A stretch of 64,000 bases of DNA from Alphaproteobacteria bacterium (lineage in GTDB: Bacteria > Pseudomonadota > Alphaproteobacteria > SHVP01). Each line of letters starts with the position of its first letter. The stretch's first letter is position 1. Positions 16,287-49,455 of the stretch are shown piece by piece. Below the pieces are notes generated by a model. It was not told where the DNA came from. It saw only the letters and a list, made by a program, of their open reading frames with translations, and did not search any database. The position numbers and the translations under genes were made by a program. The stretch lies in assembly GCA_016869765.1 (NCBI GenBank), contig VGES01000007.1, positions 13,708-77,707 on the forward strand, read 5' to 3'.

Positions 16287-17186
16287 TCAGAGTCGCAGGG
16301 CATTCGAACGATATTCGACAAATACGGAGTGGCGCTCGTGCCCTGGGGAGAATATCCCCCTAGCGTGCCAACCAAAGGTGTTCGCAATCATAAGCGTATT
16401 GGCGTCGCAGCTCAGAGTCACCTTCCTCAGGCCCCACTTCTCGAGATCGACATCGGTGATGCGCGGCGCGCGCTGTCCTATGCCAACGCTGTTCGAATAC
16501 TCGAACAGGAGCCGGCGCGGATGAAGGCGATGGGACTTGGGGACGAAGACAAAGGCAGCGCTATCCGCATCCGTTGGCCGCAGGTACAAATATGCCTTGG
16601 TGATCGAATAGAACGTATCCGAATGCAGGTCACTATTCGTATCTTCGGTATAGGCAGCGGTAGGACCGCCGTCGTGTAACAGGGCGCGCTCAAACCGCGC
16701 CTTGAACATACCGCGACGATACAGCGTTTCCTCTGTTTGGCCCTCGTGGGCCATGACGATTCTCACGAATCGTTCGTCACGCAAGACTGAACGCGTCGTT
16801 TCTGGATAAATACTCTCGTTCCCGCTGATCGTTTCCGAGTGAACAACGGTTCTTACACGATCGAGTAGGGGTAATATTCTTTGTTCCCGCAGCCGCTGTT
16901 GCGCTGCGTCGAATTCTCGCCGAACCAATGCAAGGTCGCGTTCGCTCAGAAAATTGGGGATCGTGCAGTAGCCCTGCTCTATCAATTGACGAGTGGGGGT
17001 CTCTTTCGTTGATCGATCTCGCATGCGACGCACGTGCAAGAGAGTGCGGGCCGCGCAAATTCGCGCCAGTTGAAGGCCTAGGCGGTTCAGCGCCGCAGAT
17101 GGGATCAGCTTGTCGTTGGACAGGATATTTGCCAGTTGACTCATGTCGATATCCGGATCGCGATCAAGACGAAACAGGCGTTCCAA
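16287..17186 (-). CDS. Putative Fe(II)/2-oxoglutarate dioxygenase, PhyH-like; start uncertain
   Basis: GYCTIPNFLSERDL start-like motif and an HSD...H arrangement (LHSDTFYS ... FGWHARG) typical of phytanoyl-CoA-dioxygenase-type folds. Weak. Confidence 0.45.
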   Translation of the reverse strand: MERLFRLDRDPDIDMSQLANILSNDKLIPSAALNRLGLQLARICAARTLLHVRRMRDRSTKETPTRQLIEQGYCTIPNFLSERDLALVRREFDAAQQRLREQRILPLLDRVRTVVHSETISGNESIYPETTRSVLRDERFVRIVMAHEGQTEETLYRRGMFKARFERALLHDGGPTAAYTEDTNSDLHSDTFYSITKAYLYLRPTDADSAAFVFVPKSHRLHPRRLLFEYSNSVGIGQRAPRITDVDLEKWGLRKVTLSCDANTLMIANTFGWHARGIFSPGHERHSVFVEYRSNALRL

Positions 17187-17204: not shown

Positions 17205-17981
17205 TCATTCTCGGGCGATCGAAATAGGTTTCTGTTCCACGTGAGCATTGATCGCAATCCATGCGGGGTTTTGCCGCAGGCATTCGAGGCAGTCCTCCAA
17301 GTTGAACCAGGGCCGCTCCTTGTGCAGAACCAGCAGCATCCGATCGATGAGCTCAAAGTCCGCGGCCGTATCAACGGTCCAACGGTGCCGACTTTGATCC
17401 GATGAATAGGCGACGTTGTGCAGACGAAAGCGGCTTGGCTGGCGCCACACAAAGAGAGTCACATGTTCACGATCCTCGGGATTGCTGGCTTCGGCGTGGG
17501 CCAATTCGAGCACGCTACGCGGCAGAACCTCGGTATCCATCCCCCGGGGATAGGTCGGGATCAACCGATTGCTCACATAGTCGACATCGGCTCGGCGCCC
17601 TAGAAACGCTTCGATGGTCCGATCGATAACGGCAGGGTCGATCAAGGGGCAATCTGAAGTGACGCGAACGACAATATCAGCGTCAGAGTGTCGAGCCGCG
17701 CCAACATAGCGAGCCAAGACATCTTTCTCCGGGCCGCGAAACACCTCTAGCCCCATCGCCCGAGATAGTTCGACAATCGGCAAGTCGTCATCCTTGTCCG
17801 TCGTAGCGACGACGACGGCATCAGCAAGTCGAGAGCGCGCTATACGTTCCAAGTGATGGCCGAGAAGCGACTTTCCCGCCGAGACCTTCATCACCTTTCC
17901 CGGCAATCGGGTCGAGCCCACTCGAGCCTGGGTAACGATGACGACTCTCGATCCGGAACGTTCGTTCATCCCATTTTTCAA
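17205..17981 (-). CDS. CMP-sugar cytidylyltransferase, PseF/SpsF-like (third cytidylyltransferase)
   Basis: VVIVTQARVGSTRLPGKVMK is the PseF/SpsF/KdsB-type motif (ARxGSxRLPGK). Confidence 0.7.
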   Translation of the reverse strand: MKNGMNERSGSRVVIVTQARVGSTRLPGKVMKVSAGKSLLGHHLERIARSRLADAVVVATTDKDDDLPIVELSRAMGLEVFRGPEKDVLARYVGAARHSDADIVVRVTSDCPLIDPAVIDRTIEAFLGRRADVDYVSNRLIPTYPRGMDTEVLPRSVLELAHAEASNPEDREHVTLFVWRQPSRFRLHNVAYSSDQSRHRWTVDTAADFELIDRMLLVLHKERPWFNLEDCLECLRQNPAWIAINAHVEQKPISIARE

Positions 17982-18140
17982 TTCATCTAGGTCTTACCAA
18001 AACCGAGCCATCTACTCGGGGCATCGCAAAGCCGCTGCACGGTCCGCATCCGGTTATCGTGGAGTCTTTGTACTGTCGCCAGCGATCCCCGATGGCGATC
18101 GCCTGCCAACCCTTTTCGAAAAGGCTCCGAGACGCGAGTC

Positions 18141-18860
18141 TCAGGCGCGGTCGGTCCATGATGGGCTTCTTGCGTGACGCCAACCGACCAGGTCGAACCA
18201 AACCGTAATTGCAAGAGCTCTCAAGATTCGTGCATTGGCACGCAAGCGACGGCCAAAGCGTGGGGCTCCCGAACGCTGAGATACCGGAACGTTGATAAGG
18301 CGATGACGTGCACCGGCGGCCAAGCTCGCCGACGCAAGTTCCGTGCCGATCAGACGGTAGCGGTCGAAGCAACCGTGTTTTCGGTATAACGCCGTGTTGT
18401 ATCCCTTGAGGCCGCAGAGAATATCGGGAACGCCATGACGCCATCGCGCGTACTGATTGAACAAGTACTCGGCGGTCCGCGCCGCTGCAGGTCTTTCGCC
18501 AATCACGAGATCGGCCTCGCCGCTAAGCAAGATAGCCAGTAGACTGGGCACAGCCGTTGGTTGATGCTGTCCATCGGCATCGAACGTGACGACGATGTCA
18601 GCACCTAGGGCCTCGGCTTTCTCGAAGCCCGACTGCAGGGCGGCGTCATAGCCGCGGTTACTGGGGTGGCGTACCACCAAGGCACCAGCCGACTCCGCGA
18701 GCGCGCCTGTCGCATCGGTAGAACCATCATCAACTACGATCGGTCGACCAAATGCAATGAGCGAACCTACGACCCGACCAATCGTCTCCGCTTCGTTGAG
18801 TGCCGGTATAACGATGACGCTATTCAACGTCGCGCAACAATACGCAACTGCCCTCGGCAA
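18141..18860 (-). CDS. Glycosyltransferase family 2 (short, DPM1/GtrB-catalytic-domain-like)
   Basis: VIVIPALNEAETIGRVV...VVDDGSTDAT (DxD region). The ORF-track start at 18860 is a TTG. An alternative TTG lies at 18827. Confidence 0.75.
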   Translation of the reverse strand: MPRAVAYCCATLNSVIVIPALNEAETIGRVVGSLIAFGRPIVVDDGSTDATGALAESAGALVVRHPSNRGYDAALQSGFEKAEALGADIVVTFDADGQHQPTAVPSLLAILLSGEADLVIGERPAAARTAEYLFNQYARWRHGVPDILCGLKGYNTALYRKHGCFDRYRLIGTELASASLAAGARHRLINVPVSQRSGAPRFGRRLRANARILRALAITVWFDLVGWRHARSPSWTDRA

Positions 18861-19890
18861 CGCTGCGTCGCGTCACTCTGCCGATTAGCTCACCGATGCG
18901 GTAAGGCGGCAAAGCGTCTCTTGGGCATGGGCGAAGTACGATCAGGTCGCGTTCGACTATCCGATGGCCCTCCGGCAGTGGACGACGGGCTCGAATAGCT
19001 CGGCGCTGTAGGACGACAGTTTCCCGTTCATTCTCCATGACTCTTTTTTCGTCGGTGCCCAGGGCTTGTTCGAGTTCGCGTGTGCGGTCGACCATTTCTT
19101 GCCATGACCTAGGATCCATCGAGAAGGCGTGGTCCGGCCCTTTTCTGGAGAGATCATCTGTGAAGTGCTTCTCGATCGCTCTCGCGCCCAACGCGACCGC
19201 ACCGAGGACCGTGGCATGACCAGGAGTATGGTCTGAGAGGCCGAGGACCAAGCCTTCGAACTCGCGGGCGTAAGTCTTTAGGACGTTGAGGGCGACGTGC
19301 CGAAAATTCTCCAGCGCGGCCGTGTAGTTCGTGTTGCATTGCATTAGGACGATGTCTTGTGTCCATCGGCGCACGATCTCGACCGCGGACCGGACTTCAT
19401 GCATTTCTGATGCGCCTGTCGCAAGCAATATCGGTTTTCCGGTTCGAGCCATCGCTTCAATGCTGGCATGCCAAGTGATGTCACCGGATCCAACCTTCCA
19501 CGCACACACATGCTTTGAAAGGTCATCGAGGAGGTCGAGGTCGTAAGGCGCGGTAAAATAGTCGATTCCTGCATCATCGCACGTTTCCTTGAGTATCGGG
19601 CTCCAATCCTGCGGTATTGATGCAGCGCGATAGACCTCCTCGACGGACTTTTCCCATTTGGCTTGGTGGGACTGTTGCTCTCCGAGATCTCGGAACCCCT
19701 TCCCCGAGACGATCGTCTCAGCGCGAAAATTCTGAAACTTTGCGGCATTGGCACCCGCGCTTGCGCAAAGGCGGATCAAATCCTTGGCGCGTTCGATGTC
19801 TCCGTCATGGTTCGCAGCAATGTCGGCGATGAAATAGGTGGGCGAAGTGTCACCAACCTCATGACGACCTATTCGAATCGATGCGGCCAT
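18820..19890 (-). CDS. NeuB-family nonulosonate synthase #3 (PseI/LegI/NeuB-like, with SAF domain)
   Basis: IGRHEVGDTSPTYFIADIAANHDGDIERAKDLIRLCASAGANAAKFQ. C-terminal SAF-like GHRIVERDLIVLRP. Confidence 0.8.
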   Translation of the reverse strand: MAASIRIGRHEVGDTSPTYFIADIAANHDGDIERAKDLIRLCASAGANAAKFQNFRAETIVSGKGFRDLGEQQSHQAKWEKSVEEVYRAASIPQDWSPILKETCDDAGIDYFTAPYDLDLLDDLSKHVCAWKVGSGDITWHASIEAMARTGKPILLATGASEMHEVRSAVEIVRRWTQDIVLMQCNTNYTAALENFRHVALNVLKTYAREFEGLVLGLSDHTPGHATVLGAVALGARAIEKHFTDDLSRKGPDHAFSMDPRSWQEMVDRTRELEQALGTDEKRVMENERETVVLQRRAIRARRPLPEGHRIVERDLIVLRPCPRDALPPYRIGELIGRVTRRSVAEGSCVLLRDVE

Positions 19891-19930
19891 TTGCGTTCCC
19901 CTTGCCCGCGAAGAGTCCTACCGCTCAGTC

Positions 19931-20722
19931 TTACTTCGACGTCGCAAGATACTGGCGCACAAACTGATTGCCCGGAGCGGTCGGATCCGGGTTGCGGTCC
20001 ATGGACATGGAAGCCCGAGCGCTGCGAAGATAAGGGACGTGATTGAGTTCGCTCCAACGCCCCACCAATGTCCAGCGTATGGTGGAACTGGAATTGGGCA
20101 CAGATCCATGAAAAAGGAACGGATGAAACACCAAGGCATCGCCCGCCGCCAAGTCCAATGTGACAACTCTCTCTTCGTCGATCAATGAAAGGGGAAGGGA
20201 CCAGTAGTTTTGTGGTTCCTCGACCCGATGGTGGACGTGCAGCCCCGATCGGTGTGAACCCGGGACGACGCGGAGTCCTCCACGATTTCCCCCGGTATCG
20301 GTTAGCGGAATCCAGATGTTTAGATTCATCAACGACATCAACTCAAGTTCCTGGTGCATAGGGAGGAGACGGTCGTCGCTGGGGTCGTCGATTCGCACCT
20401 GCATGTACCCAGCAAGAAGTGGCGTGCCATAGAGCTTTCGGCCAAATGCGAGAACGGTTTCGTTGGATAGCGCATGTCGTACGCCATGGAGCATGCCGAG
20501 GACGTTGTAGCAGTACGCTTTGATCTCCGGGTGCCTCGTCTTTAGCTGCAAGTACTTCGCATCGACTCCGGCGTGGTCAGTTATCCTTTCCCCGATGGCA
20601 CTCAAAGAGGTGTCAAACACTCTTTCGATCTGATCGAAGATGTCGGAAATCGAGTCGTTGGACAAAAGGCCCCGAAAGACCGCATACCCGTTGCGATCGT
20701 AGTCGTCATCGATTTGGGTCAT
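19931..20722 (-). CDS. Phytanoyl-CoA dioxygenase (PhyH) family Fe(II)/2OG oxygenase
   Basis: NIWIPLTD (metal HxD-equivalent region) and C-terminal FHPFLFHGSVPNSSSTIRWTLVGRW, typical of PhyH-family hydroxylases. Confidence 0.6.
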   Translation of the reverse strand: MTQIDDDYDRNGYAVFRGLLSNDSISDIFDQIERVFDTSLSAIGERITDHAGVDAKYLQLKTRHPEIKAYCYNVLGMLHGVRHALSNETVLAFGRKLYGTPLLAGYMQVRIDDPSDDRLLPMHQELELMSLMNLNIWIPLTDTGGNRGGLRVVPGSHRSGLHVHHRVEEPQNYWSLPLSLIDEERVVTLDLAAGDALVFHPFLFHGSVPNSSSTIRWTLVGRWSELNHVPYLRSARASMSMDRNPDPTAPGNQFVRQYLATSK

Positions 20723-20731
20723 TTGATCTTT

Positions 20732-21478
20732 TCAACCACCATCCGGTTGCGTGGGTTGAGGGGACATTTTGTTGTTCCTCGTCGCGGTGATTTCCCAGCT
20801 AGCACGTACAGTGCCTCCGAGCGCATCGCGCCTCAGGACGTGCTGAAGGTCGACGATGGCGAAATATTCGCCGAACAAAGCCTCGATGTCGCGCGGCGAC
20901 ACGAAGAACATCGTCCCTTCCTCGTCGTATGGTGTGCCACGAAAGTGGTTGTAGCTACCGTCTCCGAGGGGGTGGCCGCCGGAAACATGGGTGTCAGCGG
21001 TGCTAAACATGTGGCTATAGAGGAGGCCGCCTCTATCCAACACCCTCGCAATTTCTTCGATCGCCCTTTCGACAATGGAGCGGGCGTTGTGTGAGACCGC
21101 GGCCCGGTCGATGACAGCTTGGAACGAGCTAGTCGGCCAAGGAAGGGCATCTAGCCTCCCGACCCGAAAATCGGCGTCGTAGCCTTCTCCGGCCAGAAGC
21201 TTCCGTGCATGATCGATTGCCGTTGGCGAGCCGTCGATACCGTGCGCTGAGAATCCTTCACGTGCTAGAAACCAAACGGTATTGCCAGCACCGCAACCTA
21301 CATCGAGGATGCGAATGGATCGCCGCTCGACCCAATTTGCATCGGCAAAGCGTCTCATGACTGCGGCGACCACCCCCTGATAGGGGTAACGATTGAGCTG
21401 TCGTCCACGGCCATAAATCTGGCGCTCCCAGTGGTCGGACTGGGCGGCGGAAGGGCTATTCCCTTGGTCTCCGGTCAC
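20732..21478 (-). CDS. Class I SAM-dependent methyltransferase
   Basis: Motif I ILDVGCGAGNTVWFLAREG. Confidence 0.7.
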   Translation of the reverse strand: MTGDQGNSPSAAQSDHWERQIYGRGRQLNRYPYQGVVAAVMRRFADANWVERRSIRILDVGCGAGNTVWFLAREGFSAHGIDGSPTAIDHARKLLAGEGYDADFRVGRLDALPWPTSSFQAVIDRAAVSHNARSIVERAIEEIARVLDRGGLLYSHMFSTADTHVSGGHPLGDGSYNHFRGTPYDEEGTMFFVSPRDIEALFGEYFAIVDLQHVLRRDALGGTVRASWEITATRNNKMSPQPTQPDGG

Positions 21479-21487
21479 CGCCCCGCC

Positions 21488-22612
21488 TCAAGGATTCGCT
21501 GGTCGCGATAACCAGTGGGCCGGGTGATCGGTTGGGTGTACCGAGTTCGCGCGCCCAGAGAGCTCTTTCTTAATGCGGTCGTCAATCATCAATCCCGGCC
21601 GCCTGGTCCATGGCACCAGTCGGTTAGCGTCTTCTTGGTAGTCGAGAAATGCGTTCAGTGCTTGCTCAGAGCTCATCGACAATTCGTAGCCCTCGGACGT
21701 CATCTCATGCCGGCAGATCCATTCTATTGCCCCCAAAGCCTCGACAGGCAGCACGCTTCTCCACGTTTGCGAAGCCGGACTCTGCCCTGGGTGACTTGAG
21801 TTTCCCCGCCATCGTCCGCCTTGTTCTGTCATAAATTCTGATGGCCCGGTTGACCAGAACTCGTCGCCGATCTCGAGAAATGAGGACACGCGCGCCAGAG
21901 TTTTCGGGGTGTCTGCCACCATTTCTTCGAAGGAAAGCAGCAACACTCGATCGGCGAATCGAGCCTTCAGTTCGCGCCTATACTGTGCGGCCGTAGTCCA
22001 CATACGACCTACGAAAAGAAGTGGATGGAGGCCATCCGGGTTCCGGGATGCTCCAATCGGGTAGTTCCTCGAGGCCAGAACACCGCGTGGATCGCGAATA
22101 ATGTGAACAATACGAAGCGTCCGATCGGTGGCTACCAGTGGCGCCAACAGTTCTTCGACATAGACCTCTTTGAGTCCAACCCACGATCCCGCCGGCGCAC
22201 GGCGATATTCGGCCAATATCCCAAACAACGAATCAAGCAGTTGTGACGGGGTTGAACCGGTCAGTCGCTTTGTCACCAGTTCATCGAAAGTGACCGGCAG
22301 AGCATCTTCCTCGCCTGCCGCTCGCAGTCGTTGCTGAAGCTCGATGAGTTCGTTGGCGATCTTCGCGACGTCATATCGACCGATTGCAAGCTCTGATGGC
22401 CAATGGTCATCTCGGTCACGCAGGAAAGAAATGCCCATTGGGTCCGAGGGGTTTGACGCCAGAAATCCGCCATCATGCAGCAAGCGCCTGAGGCCCAGGA
22501 AGAGGGGAAGGGCGGGTTGATGAACGACAGAACACAGCGGATGCCGGTCGATCGTCTTCTGCAAAATCGTCGTACCCGAGCGGTAGGTTCCGCAAAGGAC
22601 TAGATGCTTCAT
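21488..22612 (-). CDS. Sulfotransferase-domain protein (PAPS-dependent)
   Basis: 5-prime PSB loop LVLCGTYRSGTTIL and 3-prime PB-like IIRDPRGVLASR. Confidence 0.65.
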   Translation of the reverse strand: MKHLVLCGTYRSGTTILQKTIDRHPLCSVVHQPALPLFLGLRRLLHDGGFLASNPSDPMGISFLRDRDDHWPSELAIGRYDVAKIANELIELQQRLRAAGEEDALPVTFDELVTKRLTGSTPSQLLDSLFGILAEYRRAPAGSWVGLKEVYVEELLAPLVATDRTLRIVHIIRDPRGVLASRNYPIGASRNPDGLHPLLFVGRMWTTAAQYRRELKARFADRVLLLSFEEMVADTPKTLARVSSFLEIGDEFWSTGPSEFMTEQGGRWRGNSSHPGQSPASQTWRSVLPVEALGAIEWICRHEMTSEGYELSMSSEQALNAFLDYQEDANRLVPWTRRPGLMIDDRIKKELSGRANSVHPTDHPAHWLSRPANP

Positions 22613-22710
22613 GCGGCGTTCAATTTCACCGCCGACAACCTGTGCGTTCCACTGTTGGTGTCAGGCGTCACGTCCTGTTTCAACCAGACCGGCGCTGTTT
22701 GACGGTGCAC

Positions 22711-23826
22711 CTAGCTCTTTCCGAGATATCCATCCGGCAGCGCACCAGCGAGGGCGACCGGCATAGCTTGTCGATCGGGCTTGCGGCTTGCGCGCACGAG
22801 CACTTCTTTCGAATAAATCTGACACTTTCGGCAAGTGTCGGGGAGCGGTTTCGTTACACCGAAGGTTGCAATGGCTTGTCGCAAGGAGCGATATTTCGAG
22901 TTGTTCCATATCTCAAGCAGATCGCTGGTACGGATGTTGCCCATCCTCAGTTCGCCGGTGATGTCATAGCAGCAAGCAGTAACTTCCCCATTGGCCCGGA
23001 CAACGATTTCATTGAACGGCATTGTGCACAATCCGAGGCCTGCCTTGGTGGCATGGCCCTCAGCGGTCGAGATCTCAAGCCCCTGTTGAGTTGCACTTTC
23101 AGCGGTCAGCCCAGGCCAGCGCATGGCATGCCCGGAATGAATCGTGCCAGGACCGAAATCATCGGCAAGAAATTTCGGTACCTGCGGTCGTGAGCCAAGT
23201 TCCGCCCGGGATGGGATTCGAATGTTGTGGATCAAGATACGAGTCTTGTCGAGAATCTTTCTCGCGCGAAGGACGTTCTCTCGAACCTTGAAATAGTTGC
23301 TTCTGATTCGGATGGCATCGTTTTCCAGCGGAGTGTCGCCATCGATCGAAACAATGATGGTGTCGACTTCGGACTCCGAGAGCTTTCTGCATGCTTGTTC
23401 GGTCAACAACATGCCGTTGGTGTGAAAATCTGTTCTTTCGACGCTCGTCTCTTTCTTTGTGCGGGAGAGCATCTCGGCAAGGCGAGGGTTCAGAAGAGGT
23501 TCTCCACTGAAGTAGAACGCGGCGTGCTTGATGCTCTTGATTGGGGTGATCTGGCCAATAATCCTATCGAAGAGCGTTGCATCCATGATGTCCTTATTGG
23601 GCGTTCCGGCGACAGCAGCCGCACCGGTTGGGCAATGGGTGCAACGAAGGTTGCACGCACTTGCTGGCTCGATGCGAATTCGTCTAGGGGAGGCAAGTCG
23701 GTATCTACGAAGGATTGCCGGTATCCCCCATTCTATGGCGTAAGGCCAAAGTCGATGGACCTCGCGTAACGGACGTTCGACCACGCCGGGGAGCAAAGAA
23801 ACGAATAACTTCCTGAGCTTTTTCAT
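22711..23826 (-). CDS. Radical SAM enzyme with SPASM/twitch-type C-terminal Cys cluster (anSME/peptide-maturase-like family)
   Basis: IRIEPASACNLRCTHCPTG (C-x3-C-x2-C) and C-terminal Cys pairs ...GEVTACCYD...CRKCQIY. Confidence 0.75.
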   Translation of the reverse strand: MKKLRKLFVSLLPGVVERPLREVHRLWPYAIEWGIPAILRRYRLASPRRIRIEPASACNLRCTHCPTGAAAVAGTPNKDIMDATLFDRIIGQITPIKSIKHAAFYFSGEPLLNPRLAEMLSRTKKETSVERTDFHTNGMLLTEQACRKLSESEVDTIIVSIDGDTPLENDAIRIRSNYFKVRENVLRARKILDKTRILIHNIRIPSRAELGSRPQVPKFLADDFGPGTIHSGHAMRWPGLTAESATQQGLEISTAEGHATKAGLGLCTMPFNEIVVRANGEVTACCYDITGELRMGNIRTSDLLEIWNNSKYRSLRQAIATFGVTKPLPDTCRKCQIYSKEVLVRASRKPDRQAMPVALAGALPDGYLGKS

Positions 23827-23989
23827 TCTGTCCGGTGTCTAGCGAAGTTGCGCCATATGAAGGGCATTCTACGTAATGCTCACGAGATGGGCACGATTGA
23901 TCATGACGCCCGGGGCGTCCTGCCTCCTATAACTCTGCCGCACCTCGAGCCTCCCGATGCGCGCAATGTCCCCGTTCAGGATGAGGATA

Positions 23990-25369
23990 TCACCCGTTCT
24001 TCCCTCGCGAACCCCTGATCACTGAACTGAAGTGGGCAACGTACTCGTCTTGAGCCGTTGGCGTTAAGGGTGAAACGTATTTCTCGAATAGCGCTCGGTA
24101 AGCGGAGTAGTAGGGCTCCGGGAGTCTTCTCGTGTCTAGTCCGGTCTGCATCAAGGTCGTCAGCTCTTCCGGAGATCGTGCCACCAATAGCCCTTCGAAC
24201 GCGTCACGATATAGGATGCGCTGATCATAGTACTCGGTTCGGACTTCGTCGAAGTGGGGGACAATGACGTAGCGCCGCGCAACGCCGGCTTCGATCAGCG
24301 TTGTGGAGTTTATCCCGACCACGACATCGCTTCTGAGGATCAGATTTTGAGCGTCCGGTTTGCTCGAAATTACGAGATTTGGAATCGTCTTTGGGTCGAT
24401 GGATGCGGCGGTCAATGCCAAACGAAAGTTCCGACGCCATTCATCTTCTGCATCTGATTTCGGTTTGATCACAACTTCGATCCCGGAGTTGTTCATAGCG
24501 AAGCGGGTGATTGTCACGGCGACCCGATCGAAATAGTCGCGCGCCATATCCGGGGGAAACGTGCCGCCTGTCCCACCGACAAGGTTGAACGGAAAGAACG
24601 TCAGTCGTCGATGGGGTGCTTCATTGTCCGGTAGTGCCGCAATTCGACGGAGAAAACGATCCATCCGGATAGCGCCCAGCGTGACCACACGATCCGCAGG
24701 CGCTACACCACATTCGATGAGGTGTCGTCTCGCGATCTCATTGTGGACGACAATCGAATCCCCCTCGAACGAAAACTTGAGCAGCGAGAGCCGCTCTCGG
24801 ATTCTTTTGAGCAATGCCGGGGACGCGTAGAGATTCTCACGATGCAAAACGACGTATGGAACCCTAAGTTCCTGGGACACAGCACCCCAGTCGAAGTCTA
24901 ACCCAAAATGGATGTGCGGACTGATGACGCAGTCGGCTCCTATGCGCCGATACAAGATCGGCAAGAAAGCGGCGAGAAAGGAACGATACCGGGATTTGGA
25001 GCGTAGCTGCTTCGAGTCCCCGTCCGGGTTGACGATCTGGCGCCAAGACGTTCGGCGGTCGTAGAAGCAATAGACGAGACGGCGAAGCCATTCTGCCGAC
25101 AATTCCAGGACACGCAACCTGCCATCGGCCGCAAGAATTTCTGGGTCGCCACGAAAACTCTCGCCCAACAGGGCGAGCACCGTTGGACGGCCCTGCTGAT
25201 GCCGCCAGCGACTAACCTGGCGTCCGTCAGGCGTACGCTCTTTTGTAGCACGTGCGAAGACGATGGCCAGCAACCTATAGGCACGTGCAGCAACGAGAAG
25301 CTTGACGACTGCCGTCTTGCCACGATGGCGGCTCGGCCAGTACCGGGTAATCTCACGTCTGATCAACAC
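23990..25369 (-). CDS. Hypothetical large cytoplasmic protein, possibly GT-B-like transferase
   Basis: 459-aa ORF, coding-like. It sits between the FemAB-like and radical SAM genes. No confident family assignment from sequence. Confidence 0.3.
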   Translation of the reverse strand: MLIRREITRYWPSRHRGKTAVVKLLVAARAYRLLAIVFARATKERTPDGRQVSRWRHQQGRPTVLALLGESFRGDPEILAADGRLRVLELSAEWLRRLVYCFYDRRTSWRQIVNPDGDSKQLRSKSRYRSFLAAFLPILYRRIGADCVISPHIHFGLDFDWGAVSQELRVPYVVLHRENLYASPALLKRIRERLSLLKFSFEGDSIVVHNEIARRHLIECGVAPADRVVTLGAIRMDRFLRRIAALPDNEAPHRRLTFFPFNLVGGTGGTFPPDMARDYFDRVAVTITRFAMNNSGIEVVIKPKSDAEDEWRRNFRLALTAASIDPKTIPNLVISSKPDAQNLILRSDVVVGINSTTLIEAGVARRYVIVPHFDEVRTEYYDQRILYRDAFEGLLVARSPEELTTLMQTGLDTRRLPEPYYSAYRALFEKYVSPLTPTAQDEYVAHFSSVIRGSRGKNG

Positions 25370-25420
25370 AACAATACTCGTTCCAATCGATCTTTCATGG
25401 GGCCGCCTTGGAGCAGTGCC

Positions 25421-26389
25421 TCATAGGTGAATGTCAAAGAACAGTCGAGGCGATGCACCAAGACTGTGCTTGAAGTCGGCCCGCGCGGGCGAGTTCGCAC
25501 CGTTGAAGTCCGCCCACTGGAGTTTCTTGTCGAAGACCCGATTGACAAAAGCGACGCACGCCATAGTCGCAGCCCCCGCGAGGCGACCGTCATCGATGGA
25601 CGCATTAGCCACAGCGTGGCCGCTACGAGAGTCGTACAGCGCAAGCTGCGCTGCGACCGGCTCACGATCTCGATCGGTGACAAATAGTATTTCCCCGATA
25701 CTTTCGGTCACGGCCGCCGTCGCCATCGCTCGGAGAGCCCGCCGGTGGTCAGCGGAAACCAGAGTTCCCTGGCGCTCGAACATCGCCGAGTACAGCCTTA
25801 AGAGAAGATCGACATCATTTCCGGAGCTTACCGTGAGACCTTCCTGTTGCGCCCTTCTCAGGTCTTGCCGACGGTCCTTTCGCCCAGCTTTGAGAACCGC
25901 CTCTACGCTGCGCAACTCTGAGCAATCGAGTAGGGCCGTATAGCGAGGCGTGATGGTACACCGGCGTTGGCCTGGTCTCCCGTAGTTGAACCAATCGAAG
26001 CCCCTGATATCCGTAATCGAATGGTGAAGGCCAAAGTGCAGTTGGCCATATTCACGGGTCAGCGTTTCGAGCAACAGGTTGGTCAGGGTCAATAGCCAAA
26101 ACGATTTGCGGGGAATCGGTAGCCCGTCAACATCGGGACTAAACATCACGCCCTGGTAGTAGGCGAACGGCATTCCCGGCAGCACATTCCCCGCTCGACG
26201 CAGTACCGCCACACCGGCCTTGATCTCACCATTTCGGGCGACGAACCATATGTCGGATACGAGATCGTGATACTTAAGAAGCCGGCCATCTTGGAACACC
26301 GTTCCCTGGAGAGAACTCGTTACAAGCAAGCTCCAATCGTCGCCTTCTGAAGAGCCGCGAAAAACCTCGAGGCCGGGGACTGGCAGCAT
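25421..26389 (-). CDS. FemAB-like / GNAT-fold acyl(aminoacyl)transferase, putative
   Basis: Size (about 320 aa) and composition resemble FemAB-family (BioF2-like) transferases. Weak motif-level support only. Confidence 0.4.
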   Translation of the reverse strand: MLPVPGLEVFRGSSEGDDWSLLVTSSLQGTVFQDGRLLKYHDLVSDIWFVARNGEIKAGVAVLRRAGNVLPGMPFAYYQGVMFSPDVDGLPIPRKSFWLLTLTNLLLETLTREYGQLHFGLHHSITDIRGFDWFNYGRPGQRRCTITPRYTALLDCSELRSVEAVLKAGRKDRRQDLRRAQQEGLTVSSGNDVDLLLRLYSAMFERQGTLVSADHRRALRAMATAAVTESIGEILFVTDRDREPVAAQLALYDSRSGHAVANASIDDGRLAGAATMACVAFVNRVFDKKLQWADFNGANSPARADFKHSLGASPRLFFDIHL

Positions 26390-26446
26390 GTCTTGGTTAG
26401 CTCTTTGATTCCGTCAGTATCAGAATCCGCGCGGCATCCCTCGGTC

Positions 26447-28069
26447 TCATCGGATGTCCCCCGCTGGTATCAAGTAGCGCCGGGCATATTCGTCTGAACG
26501 ACGCATCGGGGCTTCCATAGCTGCGTTCGCCAGATCGGCTGGGTCGAACACGATTTCAAGTCCATTGGTCAATCTCGCTTTGACCCATGCGCAACGCGAA
26601 TCGAGGGATACGCGCTCCGATGCATTCCAGCATTGCCCTTCTATTTCGAGCACCACGATTGGCGTTTCGGTCATGAGGGCCTCACCGAAAGTGGTTGTCG
26701 AAACATAGCTGAAGATCAGCAGGTCACTTTCATCGATGATGTGAATGAATGGCTGCCGAACCACGCGCTGGCATGAGGATCTCATGATGGCATCAACCTC
26801 GTTTGGTGCCTCGGGGTGAGCCTTGTAGATGACGTCGTAACCGTTAGACATAAGAACCTTCGCCATTCTCAATTCCACATCGAGGCGTGGACTGAAGAAC
26901 AGAGCCACATCTGTCGGGGCCCGTCGAAACGAGTGGTTGTAGCCAACAATCATCGCGGTTTTGCCCGTGGTCTTCTTCCTCGTCGTCGCAGAGCGAGAAC
27001 GCAAATTATTCCATCGATTGGGGATCACCGAGAAAGTGATCTCGCGAACCTTGGGCACCACGGCGATTTCGGCGCGATCAATCGCCGAGTGCATCGCAGC
27101 TGTCGATTCACACAGATACTCGGTGCAGACTGCGTAGTCGTTGTAACAGATGATGTCGTTGACGATGTGGCCTGCGTTGTGGCCATGCTGTGTACCAATT
27201 ACAGGAACACCCCTTCGCTTGTTCGCTAGTGCCAAGACACGATAGAAGGGTGGGGCTCCGGCTCCCAAGAGAACTCCAGCCGGGCGAACGGTTTCTTGGA
27301 TACCGGCGGTCAATCCAGCAAGGGTTTGCAGGCGCTTGATCCAGGCGTATTTGAGGTCGTCGATCGATATCTCTCCGCCCAGGTCGCCACAGGCACGGAC
27401 GATCTTGGCGGCGCAAGTATCGATTGCGTCGAGCAGCGACGGCGGCAACGGCCGATCGTCGTGGTCCATCCAAAGGGTGGCAAAATCCAAATTATCAACG
27501 AACCAGCCTTGTCGAACTGAGTAAGCTTCTAGCATTGGAGAAAGGTGCCCGACCACTAGCGCGGTTGGTCCAGTCTGGCCAATGAGTCTGCGAAGCAGGG
27601 GGACTCCTGGGTTGGCGCCAATGCGCCGCTTGATCCTGCGGACGCGAGAACGTATCGACGATCCGCGGGCGAGCGCCACCCGATGTTGAATCGCGAGATG
27701 CCCCCAATCAGGCCGATAGTAGGTGGCCGCGTGCGGCCCGACGTCTAAGGTGAGGCCGTATTCTTCGGCCTTGCGGGCGGTCGCCGACGAGTGGCCGATC
27801 TGGATTAAGACATCCAGTATGCGCACATCAGCCAAGAACAAGTCTTGGTCGCTGCCCGCGAGACCGTCAACAGCCTCCTTGAAGGCTTGGTAGACCGTGC
27901 CGCAAAAACCTAGGAAGTCGTCTTCGGGAATAGGCCAAGGGGGAGGTCGAGCCGTCGAACCAAAGCCGAGCCTCTGGTAGCTGACAACATCAGTCGCGAG
28001 AGTCCGACCGACCGTAGTGGCATCGAGCGTCCTATGTCTCGTCGGTGGTGAGAACTCGCGGCTTCTCAT
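26447..28069 (-). CDS. Large GT-B-like protein with K-x-HP motif (putative nonulosonate/Kdo transferase)
   Basis: Start reassigned to the internal ATG at 28069, which overlaps the upstream stop (ATGA). The ORF-track N-terminal 88 aa are Arg-rich junk. Contains VIYKAHPEAPNE ... FSYVSTTTFGEALMTETPIVVLE, the same K-x-HP architecture as the 3654-5258 protein. Confidence 0.35.
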   Translation of the reverse strand: MRSREFSPPTRHRTLDATTVGRTLATDVVSYQRLGFGSTARPPPWPIPEDDFLGFCGTVYQAFKEAVDGLAGSDQDLFLADVRILDVLIQIGHSSATARKAEEYGLTLDVGPHAATYYRPDWGHLAIQHRVALARGSSIRSRVRRIKRRIGANPGVPLLRRLIGQTGPTALVVGHLSPMLEAYSVRQGWFVDNLDFATLWMDHDDRPLPPSLLDAIDTCAAKIVRACGDLGGEISIDDLKYAWIKRLQTLAGLTAGIQETVRPAGVLLGAGAPPFYRVLALANKRRGVPVIGTQHGHNAGHIVNDIICYNDYAVCTEYLCESTAAMHSAIDRAEIAVVPKVREITFSVIPNRWNNLRSRSATTRKKTTGKTAMIVGYNHSFRRAPTDVALFFSPRLDVELRMAKVLMSNGYDVIYKAHPEAPNEVDAIMRSSCQRVVRQPFIHIIDESDLLIFSYVSTTTFGEALMTETPIVVLEIEGQCWNASERVSLDSRCAWVKARLTNGLEIVFDPADLANAAMEAPMRRSDEYARRYLIPAGDIR

Positions 28070-29388
28070 CTTTCCGTATGGCCATCGCTGGGTGCCAACA
28101 AACCAGCGGAAACGAGTTTTCGCACAGCGGGGAGGAGACTCGGCAGGGGCCGCGCAATCAAATCGGCGATCGCCAAGAGGTCGATCTCGCCGTCCGAATA
28201 GGCCAGCAGATTGAGCATCACGCGGACTTGTTCGCTTGCCTGTGCACCGCCAAGACTCGGATATAGCCCGTAGCGCCCGAGCTGCGGCTCTCCGACGGTG
28301 GTGGCGCGATAGGTTTGATTTGCCTCGAGGCACTCGATCGCGTGCTTAACGATCCGAAAACCGCCTTCGAGTCCAAGAGGGGTGACCAGATCGAGGTTGT
28401 CGAGTGAGGTGTGGTACTCGGGATAGGTGCCGTACTTCGAGCGCATCAATGAGCAGACCGGAAGGTCGACGGTCGGGAAGCCGTATTGTCGCTCATCGCT
28501 GGCTCGATCGAGGTAGTCATAGGTGTTAAAGCTACCGACCAAATGTTTCAGGGAGTGGCGGGCGGCGCGGTCAGCGAGCGTATTGCCTCGTCGCGAAGCC
28601 AAATACGAATATGCCCGCTCATCGCCAATACAGGTGAGGACGAAGCCTGCTGCGACCTGTCTCTTCAGTTCGTCAAGGCTCCGGCTCAAGAACGCGAGTG
28701 TGCCTATCGTCTCCGGCACAAAAACGAGCCGGTATCCGAAACCCCGGCGCTGAAGCGACATCAACCATTTCGCGATAAACGTCGCGACAATGGGCCCCGA
28801 AAGCTCGTTGTTTGCCATCGACGGGTGGCAAACGTAGGTCGACAAAAGAATCTCTTTGTCTCGAGTGCCTGGGAGCCTGAATTCGCCGTAGGTCAGGCTG
28901 CCGCTTGTAAGCGAGGCGTCTATACAGACCTCGTAGTCGCCGGGCAGGAGGGCATCGCGCTGCCGTTGGGAAAGGCAAAACCCCCAATTCCGCGAATAGT
29001 ACGAGGTGACGTATGGAATTGCGTCTGGCAACTCGGGCTTGGAGTGCAAGTGTCGCTGAAGTTCGTCGAGGGAGAGGCGGCGGCGAACGGGAACCGAGTA
29101 GCTAACGACATGGAGGTTGTTGGTTGCGGTGTCGACAATCTTTCGGCCGTCCGGCCCGGAGATCCAAGCCTCCCTGAGATTCCACTCGTCGGGAATCGTC
29201 CAGTCGAAGACCTTCGTCCCACTCGGGACCTCGGTAATCTCCAGCGTCGGGAGGTGTTCCCTTAGGATAGAGAGTGTTTGCCGCACACCATCTCCCGTGA
29301 TCGAGCGGCAGATTGGAAAGAGGCGCCGCGCGAGCGCGTGCATCTGCGATCCGAGGGCTTCATTTTTCGAACTCGATTGACCGGTCAT
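28066..29388 (-). CDS. Aminopeptidase-like-domain protein (DUF4910-type), glycan-cluster associated
   Basis: N-terminal SITGDGVRQTLSILREHLPTLEITEVPSGTKVFDWTIPDEW resembles DUF4910/aminopeptidase-like proteins common in polysaccharide loci. Confidence 0.4.
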   Translation of the reverse strand: MTGQSSSKNEALGSQMHALARRLFPICRSITGDGVRQTLSILREHLPTLEITEVPSGTKVFDWTIPDEWNLREAWISGPDGRKIVDTATNNLHVVSYSVPVRRRLSLDELQRHLHSKPELPDAIPYVTSYYSRNWGFCLSQRQRDALLPGDYEVCIDASLTSGSLTYGEFRLPGTRDKEILLSTYVCHPSMANNELSGPIVATFIAKWLMSLQRRGFGYRLVFVPETIGTLAFLSRSLDELKRQVAAGFVLTCIGDERAYSYLASRRGNTLADRAARHSLKHLVGSFNTYDYLDRASDERQYGFPTVDLPVCSLMRSKYGTYPEYHTSLDNLDLVTPLGLEGGFRIVKHAIECLEANQTYRATTVGEPQLGRYGLYPSLGGAQASEQVRVMLNLLAYSDGEIDLLAIADLIARPLPSLLPAVRKLVSAGLLAPSDGHTER

Positions 29389-30293
29389 CGCGGATCGTCA
29401 GACAGCCTAAGCAGGTCGGAGTCGTTCCAGGCACGCCAATCATCGCAGAACGAGTCGAGGCAACGGTCCAAGGTCGGAAGGCGCATCCCGAAAGCGTGCT
29501 CGAAGAACTCTACGTTCATCGCCATGCCGCGAGGTCTGTAGGTCTTGAGCTGGGCGTCGCCAACGCTGGCAACCACGCAAGTCTCGGTCGAAAGGCCAAG
29601 GCGCGCGGCAAGTCTCATGGCGAATTCCGCCTTACTCACCCCCGGGCCGTGATAGCCCACGTTGAACGTCCCCCGCTGCCACCGCTCGACGACTCTTGCC
29701 AGAATCCCCGGCAAGAAGCCCGCATAGATCGGGTTGAAGAAGACATCACCGAAAAGGCGCAGAGGCTGTTTCGACCGAAACGATCGAGTGAGCCATCCCG
29801 CAAACCCCTCCTTCTTTTCCGTACCCAAACAAAAAAAATTGAGTCGTAGGGCAGCGGCGTTGGCTGACAGCGCGATGTCTTCTCCCCAAAGCTTGGTCAA
29901 CGCATACACGTTCGTCGGTCGGACATCGGCCTCTCGATTGGCACCGGCACCGTCATAGACGTGGTCGCTCGACACATAGATGATTTTGGCGTCACCGGCG
30001 GCCGATACGAGGTTTCGTGTAGCGTCGACGTTTAGTCGGTAGGCGCGAGTAGGATCTGCCTCGCAAGCATCGACATCGGCCAATGCGGCCAAATGAAGGA
30101 TGACATCGGGCCGACAGCGCTTCACGAGATCGTTGACCGAACCTTTTTCCGTCAGGTCGACGGCGAGGTACGATTCACCGGAGGCCGGGGCACTGCTGGC
30201 TGCATGCCGGCAGACGAAGTATGTTTCCAAGTCTTCCGCAATAGCCCGGCCCAACAGCCCGCTGGACCCGGTGACTAGGAGTGTTGGTCTCAA
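29385..30293 (-). CDS. RmlD-like NAD(P)H-dependent sugar-nucleotide 4-ketoreductase (dTDP-4-dehydrorhamnose reductase family; WbvR-like)
   Basis: LLVTGSSGLLGRAI Rossmann motif and SSDHVYDG (compare RmlD STDYVFDG). A 4-nt overlap with the next gene. Confidence 0.7.
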   Translation of the reverse strand: MRPTLLVTGSSGLLGRAIAEDLETYFVCRHAASSAPASGESYLAVDLTEKGSVNDLVKRCRPDVILHLAALADVDACEADPTRAYRLNVDATRNLVSAAGDAKIIYVSSDHVYDGAGANREADVRPTNVYALTKLWGEDIALSANAAALRLNFFCLGTEKKEGFAGWLTRSFRSKQPLRLFGDVFFNPIYAGFLPGILARVVERWQRGTFNVGYHGPGVSKAEFAMRLAARLGLSTETCVVASVGDAQLKTYRPRGMAMNVEFFEHAFGMRLPTLDRCLDSFCDDWRAWNDSDLLRLSDDPR

Positions 30294-30306
30294 CTTGATG
30301 GAGCCG

Positions 30307-31287
30307 CTACGAACCGGTGTCGAGGATTGACAGCAGCTGTTGGTTGGTCAGCCATTGATCATTGGTCTCACTAGAGTAGCAGAATTCGGGAGCAACCAGT
30401 TTGGCGCTGGCCGGGGCAACGCGGTCCCGTGACCAAAGCGCAAACGCCGGCTCGATGACGAAGCGATCCCCCATATCGTAGGTGTAACGACTATCGTCCT
30501 CGGTGATCATCACTTCGTGCAACTTCTCGCCGGGACGAATCCCGATGGTCTTGAGAGGTAACGATGGCGCGATCGCCCGGGCAACGTCGATCACCTTCAT
30601 GCTTGGGATTTTGGGGACGAAAATCTCACCACCTTGCATTTCGCGAACACAGCGTACGACAAAGTCAACGCCTTGTTGCAAGGTGAGCCAAAATCGAGTC
30701 ATGCGCGGATCGGTGATAGGGAGGTGATCGGTGCCCCGAGCGATCAACTGACGGAAGAACGGAATGACGCTACCGCGTGAACCTATGACATTTCCGTACC
30801 GTACGACGGAAAACCTGGTTCCAACCCGACCACTCAGATTGTTGGCCGCAATGAATATCTTGTCGGAAGCAAGTTTGCTGGCGCCGTAGAGATTGATCGG
30901 ATTGGCCGCCTTGTCAGTCGATAGGGCAAGCACCCTCTGGACCCGGTTCCTGATCGCGGCTCGTACGACGTTCTCGGCACCGAAGACGTTCGTATGAATA
31001 CACTCGAAAGGGTTGTATTCGGCGGTTGGTACTTGTTTGAGTGCCGCAGCATGAACAACCAGATCGACTTCCCGCATCGCCAGCTCCAGGCGCTCCGCAT
31101 CTCGAACGTCGCCGATGAAATATCGGATCCGGCGGTCGTCGCGAAGCTCCGGATCCTGCTGCATCTCGTACTGCTTGGCTTCATCACGCGAAAACACGGC
31201 AATACGTGCCGGTGCATGCTGTCGGGTCAACGTTCGGACAAACGAACGTCCGAACGAGCCTGTCGCGCCGGTGACAAGGATGGACAT
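30307..31287 (-). CDS. UDP-GlcNAc 4,6-dehydratase, inverting (PseB/FlaA1/CapE/WbvB family)
   Basis: Start reassigned to the internal ATG at 31287 (verified cat at 31285-31287). MSILVTGATGSFGRSFV...IAVFSRDEAKQ is the hallmark of this family. 327 aa fits. Confidence 0.8.
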   Translation of the reverse strand: MSILVTGATGSFGRSFVRTLTRQHAPARIAVFSRDEAKQYEMQQDPELRDDRRIRYFIGDVRDAERLELAMREVDLVVHAAALKQVPTAEYNPFECIHTNVFGAENVVRAAIRNRVQRVLALSTDKAANPINLYGASKLASDKIFIAANNLSGRVGTRFSVVRYGNVIGSRGSVIPFFRQLIARGTDHLPITDPRMTRFWLTLQQGVDFVVRCVREMQGGEIFVPKIPSMKVIDVARAIAPSLPLKTIGIRPGEKLHEVMITEDDSRYTYDMGDRFVIEPAFALWSRDRVAPASAKLVAPEFCYSSETNDQWLTNQQLLSILDTGS

Positions 31288-44613: not shown

Positions 44614-45684
44614 ATGAGAGTCTTGGTCACAGGCGGCGCTGGCTTCATTGGTTCCGCAGTCGTGCGGCGGATGCTGTCCGACCCGGCGACCGTCGCCGTA
44701 GTCGTCGTCGATAAGCTGACCTATGCCGGTCATCGGGTCAATCTGACGCAGGTCGAGGGGAACCCGCGCTACGCCTTCGTTCAGGCCGACATCGTCGACG
44801 GGGCGGCAATGGCAGCTGTCTTCGATGAGCACCAACCCGACTCAGTCATGCACCTGGCGGCCGAGTCCCACGTCGACCGATCCATCGACGGACCGCGACC
44901 TGCAGTCGAGACGAACGTCCTTGGGACGTTCACGTTGCTTGAGGCCGCTCGCGCCTATTGGGGCCAGATGAAGGGTGAGCGGCGCGATCGTTTCCGTTTC
45001 CACCACGTTTCGACGGATGAAGTGTTCGGCAGCTTGGGGCCGGAGGGAGTGTTCACCGAAGCCTCGACCTACGACCCGCGCTCGCCTTACTCCGCCAGCA
45101 AGGCCGGATCCGATCACCTCGTAAGAGCTTGGCATCACACGTACGGTTTGCCAGTTGTCGTGAGCAACACGTGCAACAACTATGGGCCGCGGCAGTACCC
45201 CGAAAAGCTCATCCCCGTCCTCATCGGTCGTGCACTGACGGGTGAGCGACTGCCGATCTACGGCTCGGGTACCAACGTCCGCGATTGGATCTTCGTAGAG
45301 GATCACGCCGAAGCATTAATCGCCATTCTCCAACGCGGCCGAGCCGGAGAGTCCTACAACGTCGGCGCACGCGCAGAACGCACCAACAATCAGGTCGTCG
45401 AGCTGGTATGCCGCATGCTCGACGAGTTGATTCCGCAATCCACGCACCGCCCGCACAGACAGCTCATCGAGTATGTGGCCGACCGTCCGGGACACGATCA
45501 GCGCTACGCGATCGACCCATCGAAGGTGGAGCGCGAATTGGGCTGGCGACCGAAAGTAAGTTTCGAACAAGGGCTTCGCATGACTGTGGAATGGTACATC
45601 TCCAACCAGGAGTGGTGCCGTGTCGTCACGCGGGATCGCTATGATGGCGGTCGATTGGGGGTCACTGCAGGGTATCGGCGATGA
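44614..45684 (+). CDS. rmlB: dTDP-glucose 4,6-dehydratase
   Basis: [31 protein letters not shown] catalytic YxxxK, and the typical 356 aa. Confidence 0.85.
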
Positions 45685-46559: not shown

Positions 46560-46569
46560 ACATGGCGCG

Positions 46570-49435: not shown

Positions 49436-49455
49436 AATTCACCTGGGGACAGCCG

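Follow-up and report, generated by a model that had tools for sequence, protein, structure and literature searches.

The dehydratase and reductase genes

The window, i.e. the whole 64,000-nucleotide stretch (positions 13708-77707) of contig VGES01000007.1 (Alphaproteobacteria bacterium, GCA_016869765.1) analysed here, contains a block at about 1256-31287 in which nearly all genes lie on the minus strand. The block is headed by two genes, one for a nucleotide-sugar 4,6-dehydratase and one for an RmlD-like reductase, which are the subject of this study (Table 1). An earlier reading made from the letters of the window (the sequence-only reading) had singled out this pair as a possible entry into a nonulosonic acid (NulO) with a hydroxyl in place of an amino group at C7. 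The coordinates it gave for the two genes were exact, and the motifs it quoted (IAVFSRDEAKQ in the dehydratase and SSDHVYDG in the reductase) were both found in the translations.

The dehydratase gene starts at the ATG at 31287, with a GTG at 31308 as a possible alternative; the N-terminus of a longer GTG-started open reading frame reaching 31590 is unlikely to be the true one. The protein, in which RIAVFSRDEAKQ is present, scored 509.9 bits on the PseB model TIGR03589, above the equivalog cut-off of 407.75, and 233.8 bits on the FnlA model, far under the cut-off of 730. Its best solved relative is Helicobacter pylori FlaA1/PseB (PDB 2GN4; 400 bits), with CapE at 223 bits. It has ALSTDKAANPINLYGA(S/T)KL in common with 2GN4, and its catalytic stretch, ALSTDKAANPINLYGASKL, matches that of 2GN4 residue for residue (STDK...YGASK identical); the STDK...Y-x3-K residues presumably have the catalytic roles assigned to them in the FlaA1 structure paper. 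No other PseB equivalog is encoded in the genome. These comparisons place the protein in the PseB family, and its enzymatic activity would be that of the equivalog.

The reductase gene starts with a TTG 13 nt past the PseB stop codon. Its product contains a nucleotide-binding GxxGxxG motif (TGSSGLLG), the motif YVSSDHVYDG, and residues S108, Y130 and K134, the triad of extended short-chain dehydrogenases/reductases (SDRs), which were invariant in an alignment of 18 homologues. It matches Pfam RmlD_sub_bind with 129 bits and scored 129.2 bits on the rmlD equivalog TIGR01214, below the cut-off of 224.05; the genome's true RmlD, encoded on contig C6, scored 271.1 bits on the same model. The WbcJ/WbjC reductase model NF047837 gave no match at E < 1e-5.

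Cassette genes across bacterial phyla

Species genomes were scanned with a profile of the reductase alignment and the 80 best loci (numbered with the prefix L) were retained. In 30 of them, genes for PseB and for a NeuB of one distinct clade were both found within 10 kb of the reductase gene. The cassette consists of genes for PseB, the reductase, this NeuB-family nonulosonate synthase, a CMP-transferase (cytidylyltransferase) and a small family 2 glycosyltransferase (GT2), and they are often translationally coupled. Membership was defined as a PseB equivalog, a PseB-linked reductase, a NeuB of the clade (at least 50% identity) and a cytidylyltransferase, all on one strand; the window has each of these, within 17205-31287 on the minus strand. 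The 30 loci are from Pseudomonadota, Verrucomicrobiota, Bdellovibrionota, Gemmatimonadota, Acidobacteriota, Bacteroidota and Chloroflexota, and a cut contig from Leptospiraceae (Spirochaetota) carries the reductase, NeuB and GT2 genes.

Locus L024 is a compact copy of the window locus, its PseB, reductase, DUF4910 protein, NeuB, GT2 and cytidylyltransferase being 72, 48, 60, 70, 57 and 57% identical to those of the window, respectively. In L024, the DUF4910 gene is followed by genes for a methyltransferase, a sulfotransferase, a FemAB-like GNAT, NeuB, GT2 and cytidylyltransferase, in that order; in the window, the five-gene core is interrupted by tailoring genes (DUF4910, FemAB-like GNAT, radical SAM, sulfotransferase, methyltransferase and PhyH). 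A minimal cassette is found in L115, which has PseB, cytidylyltransferase, reductase, NeuB and GT2 and no other sugar-nucleotide gene, and L113 and two loci containing PIG-L are variants of the cassette. The reductase and NeuB genes abut or overlap in L113, L115 and L172. Two architectures could be recognized, one with GT2 after NeuB, to which the window belongs, and one with a GT4 in this place, found in Chloroflexota and Acidobacteriota. L113 (at 7974-10001) and one PIG-L locus also encode a cytidylyltransferase-class-III aminotransferase fusion of 675-678 aa beside an aldo-keto reductase, and an aldo-keto reductase recurs in the Fusobacterium cassettes.

In a quick maximum-likelihood (ML) tree made with IQ-TREE, all 30 reductases encoded beside both PseB and the cassette NeuB fell in one group of 41 rows, apart from the genome's own RmlD, which lay in the other half of the tree; the window reductase was in a 16-row clade with 99% support. 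Mapping the label for PseB/NeuB neighbours on the tree took 9 changes, compared with a mean of 25 for shuffled labels, and none of 500 shuffles equalled this value. Because of its score, tree position and context, the reductase can be excluded, as far as sequence comparison goes, from the role of a true RmlD; clustering with true RmlD, which the sequence-only reading had named as a finding that would speak against it, was not seen. Relatives of the window reductase reach only about 50% identity, the closest by tblastn (54%) being in L023. In that locus (L023:6804-18800), no PseB gene is within reach, the NeuB is just 30% identical to the cassette NeuB, and the neighbours encode an ABC exporter, a cytidylyltransferase, a HAD hydrolase, an aldehyde dehydrogenase and a transketolase-GNAT fusion; such a locus may lead to another ulosonic acid or to one with a longer carbon chain.

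The cassette NeuB scored 256.9 bits on the NeuB model, under the cut-off of 399.65, and is about equally distant from the solved NeuB, PseI and SpsE (131, 131 and 123 bits). It shares 45-70% identity (mostly 54-64%) with the NeuB proteins of the cassette loci, to which the second NeuB of the window (NeuB#2) is only 25-33% identical. Orthologues of the cytidylyltransferase in these loci are 34-57% identical. GT2 orthologues (40-57% identity) are encoded directly after NeuB in L024, L034-L037, L039, L040, L042 and L043, and L113 and L115 also have a Pfam GT2 in this slot. The best solved relative of the GT2, DPM synthase (36 bits), is uninformative.

The genome has five NeuB-family genes. Three of them are in the minus-strand super-locus at 1256-31287, each with its own cytidylyltransferase, and the others, outside the window, are on contigs C30 (25-30 kb) and C50. 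An ABC exporter and two more NulO modules are encoded further down the block. The NeuC gene of the window, 16 kb from the reductase gene, is assigned to one of these modules since it is directly beside a different NeuB gene, NeuB#2. A search up to 10 kb away gave a NeuC homologue in only one of the 30 cassette loci, where it likewise adjoins a second NeuB gene. A NeuC-like 2-epimerisation, which the sequence-only reading had placed in the pathway, is thus dropped, the window NeuC belonging to the neighbouring module and 29 of the 30 loci having none.

Table 1. Genes of the minus-strand block of the window and the basis of their assignment
Feature	Position	Strand	Basis or remark
PseB-type inverting UDP-GlcNAc 4,6-dehydratase/5-epimerase	30307-31287	-	TIGR03589, PDB 2GN4
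RmlD-like SDR, proposed UDP-4-keto-6-deoxy-L-AltNAc 4-reductase	29385-30293	-	RmlD_sub_bind, motifs, tree
DUF4910/DUF2172/wHTH aminopeptidase-like protein	28066-29388	-	Pfam; PDB 3K9T
Soluble protein with LIC12162/GT-B-like features	26447-28333	-	Sequence-feature leads; no Pfam/NCBIfam match
FemAB-like GNAT (Acetyltransf_6)	25421-26389	-	Pfam and NCBIfam; homologue in L024
Protein with Lept_O_ant_chp1/GT-B-like features	23990-25369	-	Weak match to BFO_1060 glycosyltransferase family; feature leads
Radical SAM/SPASM protein	22711-23826	-	Pfam
Sulfotransferase	21488-22612	-	Pfam; counterpart in L024
Methyltransferase	20732-21478	-	Pfam; counterpart in L024
PhyH dioxygenase	19931-20722	-	Pfam
NeuB-family nonulosonate synthase, cassette-specific clade	18820-19890	-	PF03102, 228 bits
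Small soluble GT2 adjoining cassette NeuB	18141-18860	-	PF00535
CMP-ulosonate cytidylyltransferase	17205-17981	-	PF02348
Second, weak PhyH-like dioxygenase, distal end of module	16287-17186	-	PF05721, 25 bits
NeuB#2	13362-14513	-	Adjoins NeuC equivalog
NeuC equivalog	12132-13310	-	367.8 bits (cut-off 235.9)
NeuB-cupin fusion	5790-7328	-	Third NulO module, which also has a HAD phosphatase

Aminotransferases of the families DegT (PF01041), class III (PF00202) and class I/II (PF00155) were found elsewhere in the genome (99.6% complete) and nowhere on C7, the contig of the window. The lack of a DegT gene in the window reported by the sequence-only reading therefore extends to the entire contig, and no aminotransferase gene is present just outside the window. 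DegT genes occur somewhere in all five cassette-carrying genomes tested, and six strong ones are present in the genome studied here. Since whole-genome absence of DegT is thus uninformative, models of the PseC and PseG equivalogs were used instead. No PseC equivalog was found in the genome above the cut-off of 423.5 bits (best score 316.5, on C12), and PseG gave no genome match at an E value of 0.001 or better. The cassette NeuB scored 214 bits on PseI, under the cut-off of 340.25, and the cytidylyltransferase had no match to PseF at E < 1e-5. Three other cassette genomes likewise lack PseC and PseG equivalogs, whereas in a fourth, Psychrobacter Arc29, a canonical PseC-PseG pair is encoded separately. 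Like Arc29, Neptuniibacter caesariensis MED92 is a carrier of the cassette that has been cultured. The NulO module on C30 encodes a NeuB, a radical SAM/SPASM protein, a CMP-transferase and a DegT aminotransferase, with no dehydratase of its own. Because its aminotransferase is LegC-like (379.8 bits on LegC, 214.9 on PseC) and its NeuB scores above the cut-off of the NeuB/LegI-type equivalog, this module is of the legionaminic type, for which a D-configured keto sugar is expected.

Several tailoring proteins deserve comment. The DUF4910 start codon immediately follows the reductase stop codon, and the protein matches the 'putative peptidase' PDB 3K9T with 379 bits. A DUF4910 protein occupies the same slot in L024, and PIG-L occupies it in sister loci (e.g. 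L114:10831-11535). Since the slot is shared with PIG-L deacetylases, the DUF4910 protein might act as an N-deacetylase, after which the FemAB-like GNAT might re-acylate N5, although we infer this only weakly; the shared slot also points to sugar N-deacetylation, and not peptide cleavage, as the function of DUF4910 proteins encoded in glycan loci. The protein at 26447-28333 has no transmembrane segments, its true start is probably downstream of the DUF4910 stop codon, and its features match clusters with LIC12162, Capsule_synth or Glyphos_transf, which are leads only. The protein at 23990-25369 has a 39% identical homologue in L024. By their LIC12162/Capsule_synth-like leads, both may be candidate transferases for the activated sugar. 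On the plus strand of the window, 44614-50481 carries rmlB-like and rmlA-like genes, a further epimerase/reductase gene, and genes for a Kdo transferase (WaaA) and a WecA-like initiating transferase; the rmlB and rmlA genes (44614-46559) have no adjoining rmlC or rmlD, and the rmlD of the genome is on another contig.

The O-antigen locus of Fusobacterium nucleatum ATCC 25586

The sole reported one-nitrogen 3,5,9-trideoxy NulO is that of the F. nucleatum ATCC 25586 O-antigen, where it occurs alongside 6-deoxy-L-AltNAc (L-6dAltNAc) (PMC7371886). The repeat of this O-antigen is [4-beta-Non5Am-4-alpha-L-6dAltNAc3PCho-3-beta-D-QuiNAc] (PMC13014188). When the window NeuB was compared with 22 Fusobacterium species genomes, one match (53% identity) was obtained, in Fusobacterium sp. 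oral taxon 370 F0437, whose cassette encodes PseB, an aldo-keto reductase, an SDR, a cytidylyltransferase, an RmlD-like reductase, NeuB and a GNAT. The F0437 PseB gene (L164:12052-13061) is split over two frames at about 12351-12378, owing to a frameshift or a sequencing error. The F0437 reductase is in the same 90%-identity cluster as AAL93800.1 of F. nucleatum subsp. nucleatum, which is encoded in AE009951.2 in a cassette region at 170225-191103; AE009951 is the genome of ATCC 25586 (PMC3237422).

In AE009951.2, PseB scored 520.5 bits and is 53% identical to the window PseB, the reductase scored 130 bits on rmlD, mirroring the 129 bits of the window protein, and NeuB, which is 52% identical to the window NeuB, scored 280.6 and 232.2 bits, both, like the scores of the window NeuB, under the cut-off. 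A CMP-transferase is also part of this cassette. Like the window, the ATCC 25586 locus thus has a PseB equivalog, a sub-threshold RmlD-like reductase, the cassette NeuB and a CMP-transferase, and no aminotransferase is encoded up to 10 kb away. This cassette is part of an O-antigen locus with additional genes for a PglF-like dehydratase, an initiating transferase, another SDR, a GT2, a polymerase of the EpsG type and a flippase. The genes and the published repeat can be matched: QuiNAc would be made by the PglF-like dehydratase and the extra SDR, L-6dAltNAc by PseB and the reductase, and Non5Am from L-6dAltNAc via NeuB. This match of genotype and chemotype supports, at the level of gene content, the prediction of a 7-hydroxy nonulosonate.

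In addition to the genes shared with the window, the Fusobacterium cassette encodes an aldo-keto reductase, a short-chain dehydrogenase and a small GNAT, and its cytidylyltransferase carries a fused NeuB-like domain. It has neither a GT2 after NeuB nor counterparts of the window genes for DUF4910, FemAB, sulfotransferase and radical SAM proteins. The fusion protein has 591 aa (L175:8212-9987 in CP028101.1; also in L173 and L174), with a divergent N-terminal NeuB-like domain, for which the NeuB and PseI models gave scores of about 50 bits; the annotation of AE009951.2 includes just the C-terminal part, of 259 aa. This domain could supply the missing UDP-release or an epimerase function.

Two other Fusobacterium candidates were rejected. 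F. nucleatum SB042, the species-representative genome, has just a 43% identical PseB-like gene beside a DegT gene and no cassette. The reductase group P0146 belongs to a legionaminic-like O-antigen locus with DegT and an FnlA-like dehydratase. P0146 is a 288-aa RmlD-like reductase, 43% identical to the Fusobacterium cassette reductase, and its locus (L166-L171) encodes DegT, a PglD-like acetyltransferase, NeuB, NeuC, a cytidylyltransferase and an FnlA-like dehydratase with Polysacc_syn_2C; this second type of O-antigen locus is common in Fusobacterium (metagenomic and NCBI contigs) and may belong to a strain with the diamino fusaminic acid.

Proposed pathway, alternatives and implications

Taken together, the data suggest, with a probability of roughly 0.68, that the products of the two genes open a pseudaminic-acid-like pathway to a 7-hydroxy nonulosonate, in which they catalyze steps 1 and 2 and no aminotransferase takes part. 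Judged from the equivalog, PseB would convert UDP-GlcNAc to UDP-2-acetamido-2,6-dideoxy-beta-L-arabino-hex-4-ulose. The RmlD-like reductase, with NAD(P)H, would reduce the 4-keto group to yield UDP-6-deoxy-L-AltNAc, or possibly its C4 epimer, and would stand in for PseC and PseH. By established carbohydrate stereochemistry, a hydride delivered in the manner of RmlD would set C4 in the altro configuration, i.e. the 4-hydroxy analogue of the pseudaminic acid precursor. Since NeuB-family enzymes require a free aldose, UDP must come off, and the conserved small GT2 is a candidate for this step. It is the best candidate because it is the sole unexplained sugar-nucleotide enzyme in the minimal cassette and adjoins NeuB across phyla; PseG, by analogy, is a hydrolase with a GT-B fold. 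We put the chance that the GT2 is the UDP-sugar hydrolase at slightly below even; otherwise, it would be a transferase. The cassette NeuB would condense the free 6-deoxy-HexNAc with phosphoenolpyruvate (PEP) to form a 5-acetamido-3,5,9-trideoxy (7-hydroxy) non-2-ulosonic acid, which the cytidylyltransferase would activate with CMP. By calculation from the formula of Neu5Ac, this acid would be C11H19NO8 (293.11 Da), an isomer of 9-deoxy-Neu5Ac. As the tailoring genes lie within the core, the final sugar in this organism is probably N5-re-acylated and further decorated. A wider proposal, with the odds somewhat against all of it holding, is that in many phyla the cassette is a route to L-6dAltNAc and fusaminic-type 7-hydroxy 3,5,9-trideoxy nonulosonates, that the product is N5-re-acylated, methylated and sulfated here, and that the GT2, a small GT-A enzyme, acts as a UDP-sugar hydrolase replacing PseG.

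The cassette may be regarded as encoding a variant pathway of the pseudaminic type, for which a link to a published structure is now available. The CMP-pseudaminic acid pathway of H. pylori and Campylobacter jejuni (PseB, PseC, PseH, PseG, PseI and PseF) has the same first enzyme and the same logic, in which UDP-GlcNAc is converted to a 6-deoxy-L-altro hexose, followed by NeuB-type PEP condensation and CMP activation. In contrast, the present cassette has no PseC or PseG equivalog, the GNAT of the locus is FemAB-like, the synthase is under the PseI cut-off and the cytidylyltransferase has no PseF match. Because the reductase would replace both amination and acetylation, C7 should carry a hydroxyl. 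An inverting UDP-GlcNAc 4,6-dehydratase and then an SDR 4-reductase whose substrate is a UDP-2-acetamido-2,6-dideoxy-L-hex-4-ulose are likewise found in the WbvB-WbvR-WbvD pathway of Vibrio cholerae O37 (UDP-L-RhaNAc/UDP-L-QuiNAc) and in the CapE/FnlA-CapF/WbjC-CapG pathway (UDP-L-FucNAc), but the window reductase has no cupin domain, no non-hydrolysing 2-epimerase follows and the product would feed NeuB. The analogy with WbvB/WbvR drawn in the sequence-only reading is therefore retained for the order of the two reactions and given up for the sugar: since the dehydratase is of the PseB type and not of the FnlA (or WbvB-like) type, 6-deoxy-L-AltNAc, not L-RhaNAc, is expected, with no C3 epimerisation. 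RmlD shares the SDR fold, the RmlD substrate-binding domain and the S/Y/K triad, and catalyzes an analogous 4-keto reduction of a 6-deoxy-L-hexulose nucleotide, whereas the window reductase is genetically tied to PseB and NeuB, and its predicted substrate is a UDP- and not a dTDP-sugar. Apart from the NeuC step, the earlier interpretation that the PseB product is reduced, not aminated, on the way to a 7-hydroxy nonulosonate is supported by the synteny, the lack of PseC and PseG, and the ATCC 25586 locus. Its statement that this class has essentially no described biosynthetic genes agrees with our literature search on fusaminic and trideoxy nonulosonic acids and on PseB with a 4-reductase, which gave structures and no gene assignment.

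Several observations weigh against this proposal. i) For the reductase, the substrate, the cofactor and the stereochemistry at C4 are predictions. ii) In the window, 9.5 kb separate the reductase gene from the NeuB gene, and NeuC and two more NeuB genes are near the cassette. iii) For the release of UDP, no PseG was found in the genome and no NeuC linked to the cassette; in the cassettes of Chloroflexota and Acidobacteriota, a GT4 takes the place of the GT2, which has no counterpart after NeuB in Fusobacterium. iv) DegT genes are present within 10 kb in 11 of the 30 cassette loci (none in the other 19), and in four of the retrieved loci, three of them among the 30, DegT is paired with a GFO/IDH/MocA oxidoreductase. 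v) The 41-row PseB-linked group has an SH-aLRT support of 85-87 in a quick tree. vi) The Fusobacterium reductase is about 24% identical to that of the window, its placement with the PseB-linked reductases is weakly supported (0.74), and the lack of DegT around the AE009951.2 cassette refers to a range of 10 kb. As to the paired genes in iv), GFO/IDH/MocA precedes DegT (L039:12559-14958; also L042, L045 and L057), usually downstream of NeuB; by analogy with WbpB/WbpE, they might oxidise and then transaminate, adding a late-stage amino group.

It is unlikely that the dehydratase and reductase make a UDP-6-deoxy-L-HexNAc, e.g. L-6dAltNAc, as a direct donor while NeuB uses another aldose, such as ManNAc supplied by the window NeuC. 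L-6dAltNAc itself is a constituent of the ATCC 25586 O-antigen (PMC13014188), six loci have PseB and the reductase with no cassette-type NeuB within 10 kb, the window does encode a NeuC equivalog, and the UDP-sugar hydrolase of the cassette is just a candidate. However, the distinct NeuB clade travels with the PseB-reductase pair and in three loci its gene abuts or overlaps that of the reductase; NeuC is missing from 29 of the 30 loci and stands beside a different NeuB in the remaining one; and the gene list of L115 offers NeuB no other aldose source. A hexose branch is partly true in Fusobacterium, but the coupling of reductase and NeuB speaks for a nonulosonate route in addition. We consider it quite improbable that an aminotransferase and an acetyltransferase encoded elsewhere aminate the PseB product to an ordinary 5,7-diamino pseudaminic-type sugar, with the reductase serving another branch. 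The six DegT genes, and the C30 module with a DegT and no dehydratase, would be in keeping with this, but the best of them falls more than 100 bits short of the PseC cut-off, the C30 module is of the legionaminic type, PseG is missing from the genome, and the aminotransferase-free arrangement recurs across many genomes.

That the reductase acts late, on a keto group of the finished nine-carbon sugar produced by, e.g., the radical SAM or PhyH protein, is very improbable. The locus does encode oxidising tailoring enzymes and the SDR fold is generic, but the reductase is retained in minimal cassettes without those genes (L115, L113 and L172), and the 4-keto product of PseB would then have no onward enzyme. 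Finally, there is hardly any likelihood that the protein works with the products of the rmlB-rmlA genes as an ordinary dTDP-4-dehydrorhamnose reductase, for although it matches the Pfam RmlD domain and those genes are in the same window, its equivalog score falls well short of that of the RmlD on C6, its gene follows PseB closely on the strand opposite to rmlBA, and it belongs to the PseB-linked tree group.

NulOs cap bacterial surfaces and influence how these are recognized by phages, Siglecs and antibodies; the textbook routes are those to neuraminic (Neu), legionaminic (Leg) and pseudaminic (Pse) acids. If the proposed pathway is correct, the one-nitrogen 9-deoxy class would be far commoner than the chemistry suggests, with producers in Chloroflexota, Acidobacteriota, Pseudomonadota, Verrucomicrobiota, Gemmatimonadota, Bdellovibrionota, Spirochaetota and Fusobacterium, and loci annotated as 'pseudaminic acid' on the strength of just PseB and NeuB would in many cases be misannotated. 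The Siglec-7-binding O-antigen of a colorectal-cancer-associated bacterium would gain biosynthetic genes that can be tested, and the window locus would supply candidate enzymes for the sulfation and N-re-acylation of such sugars.

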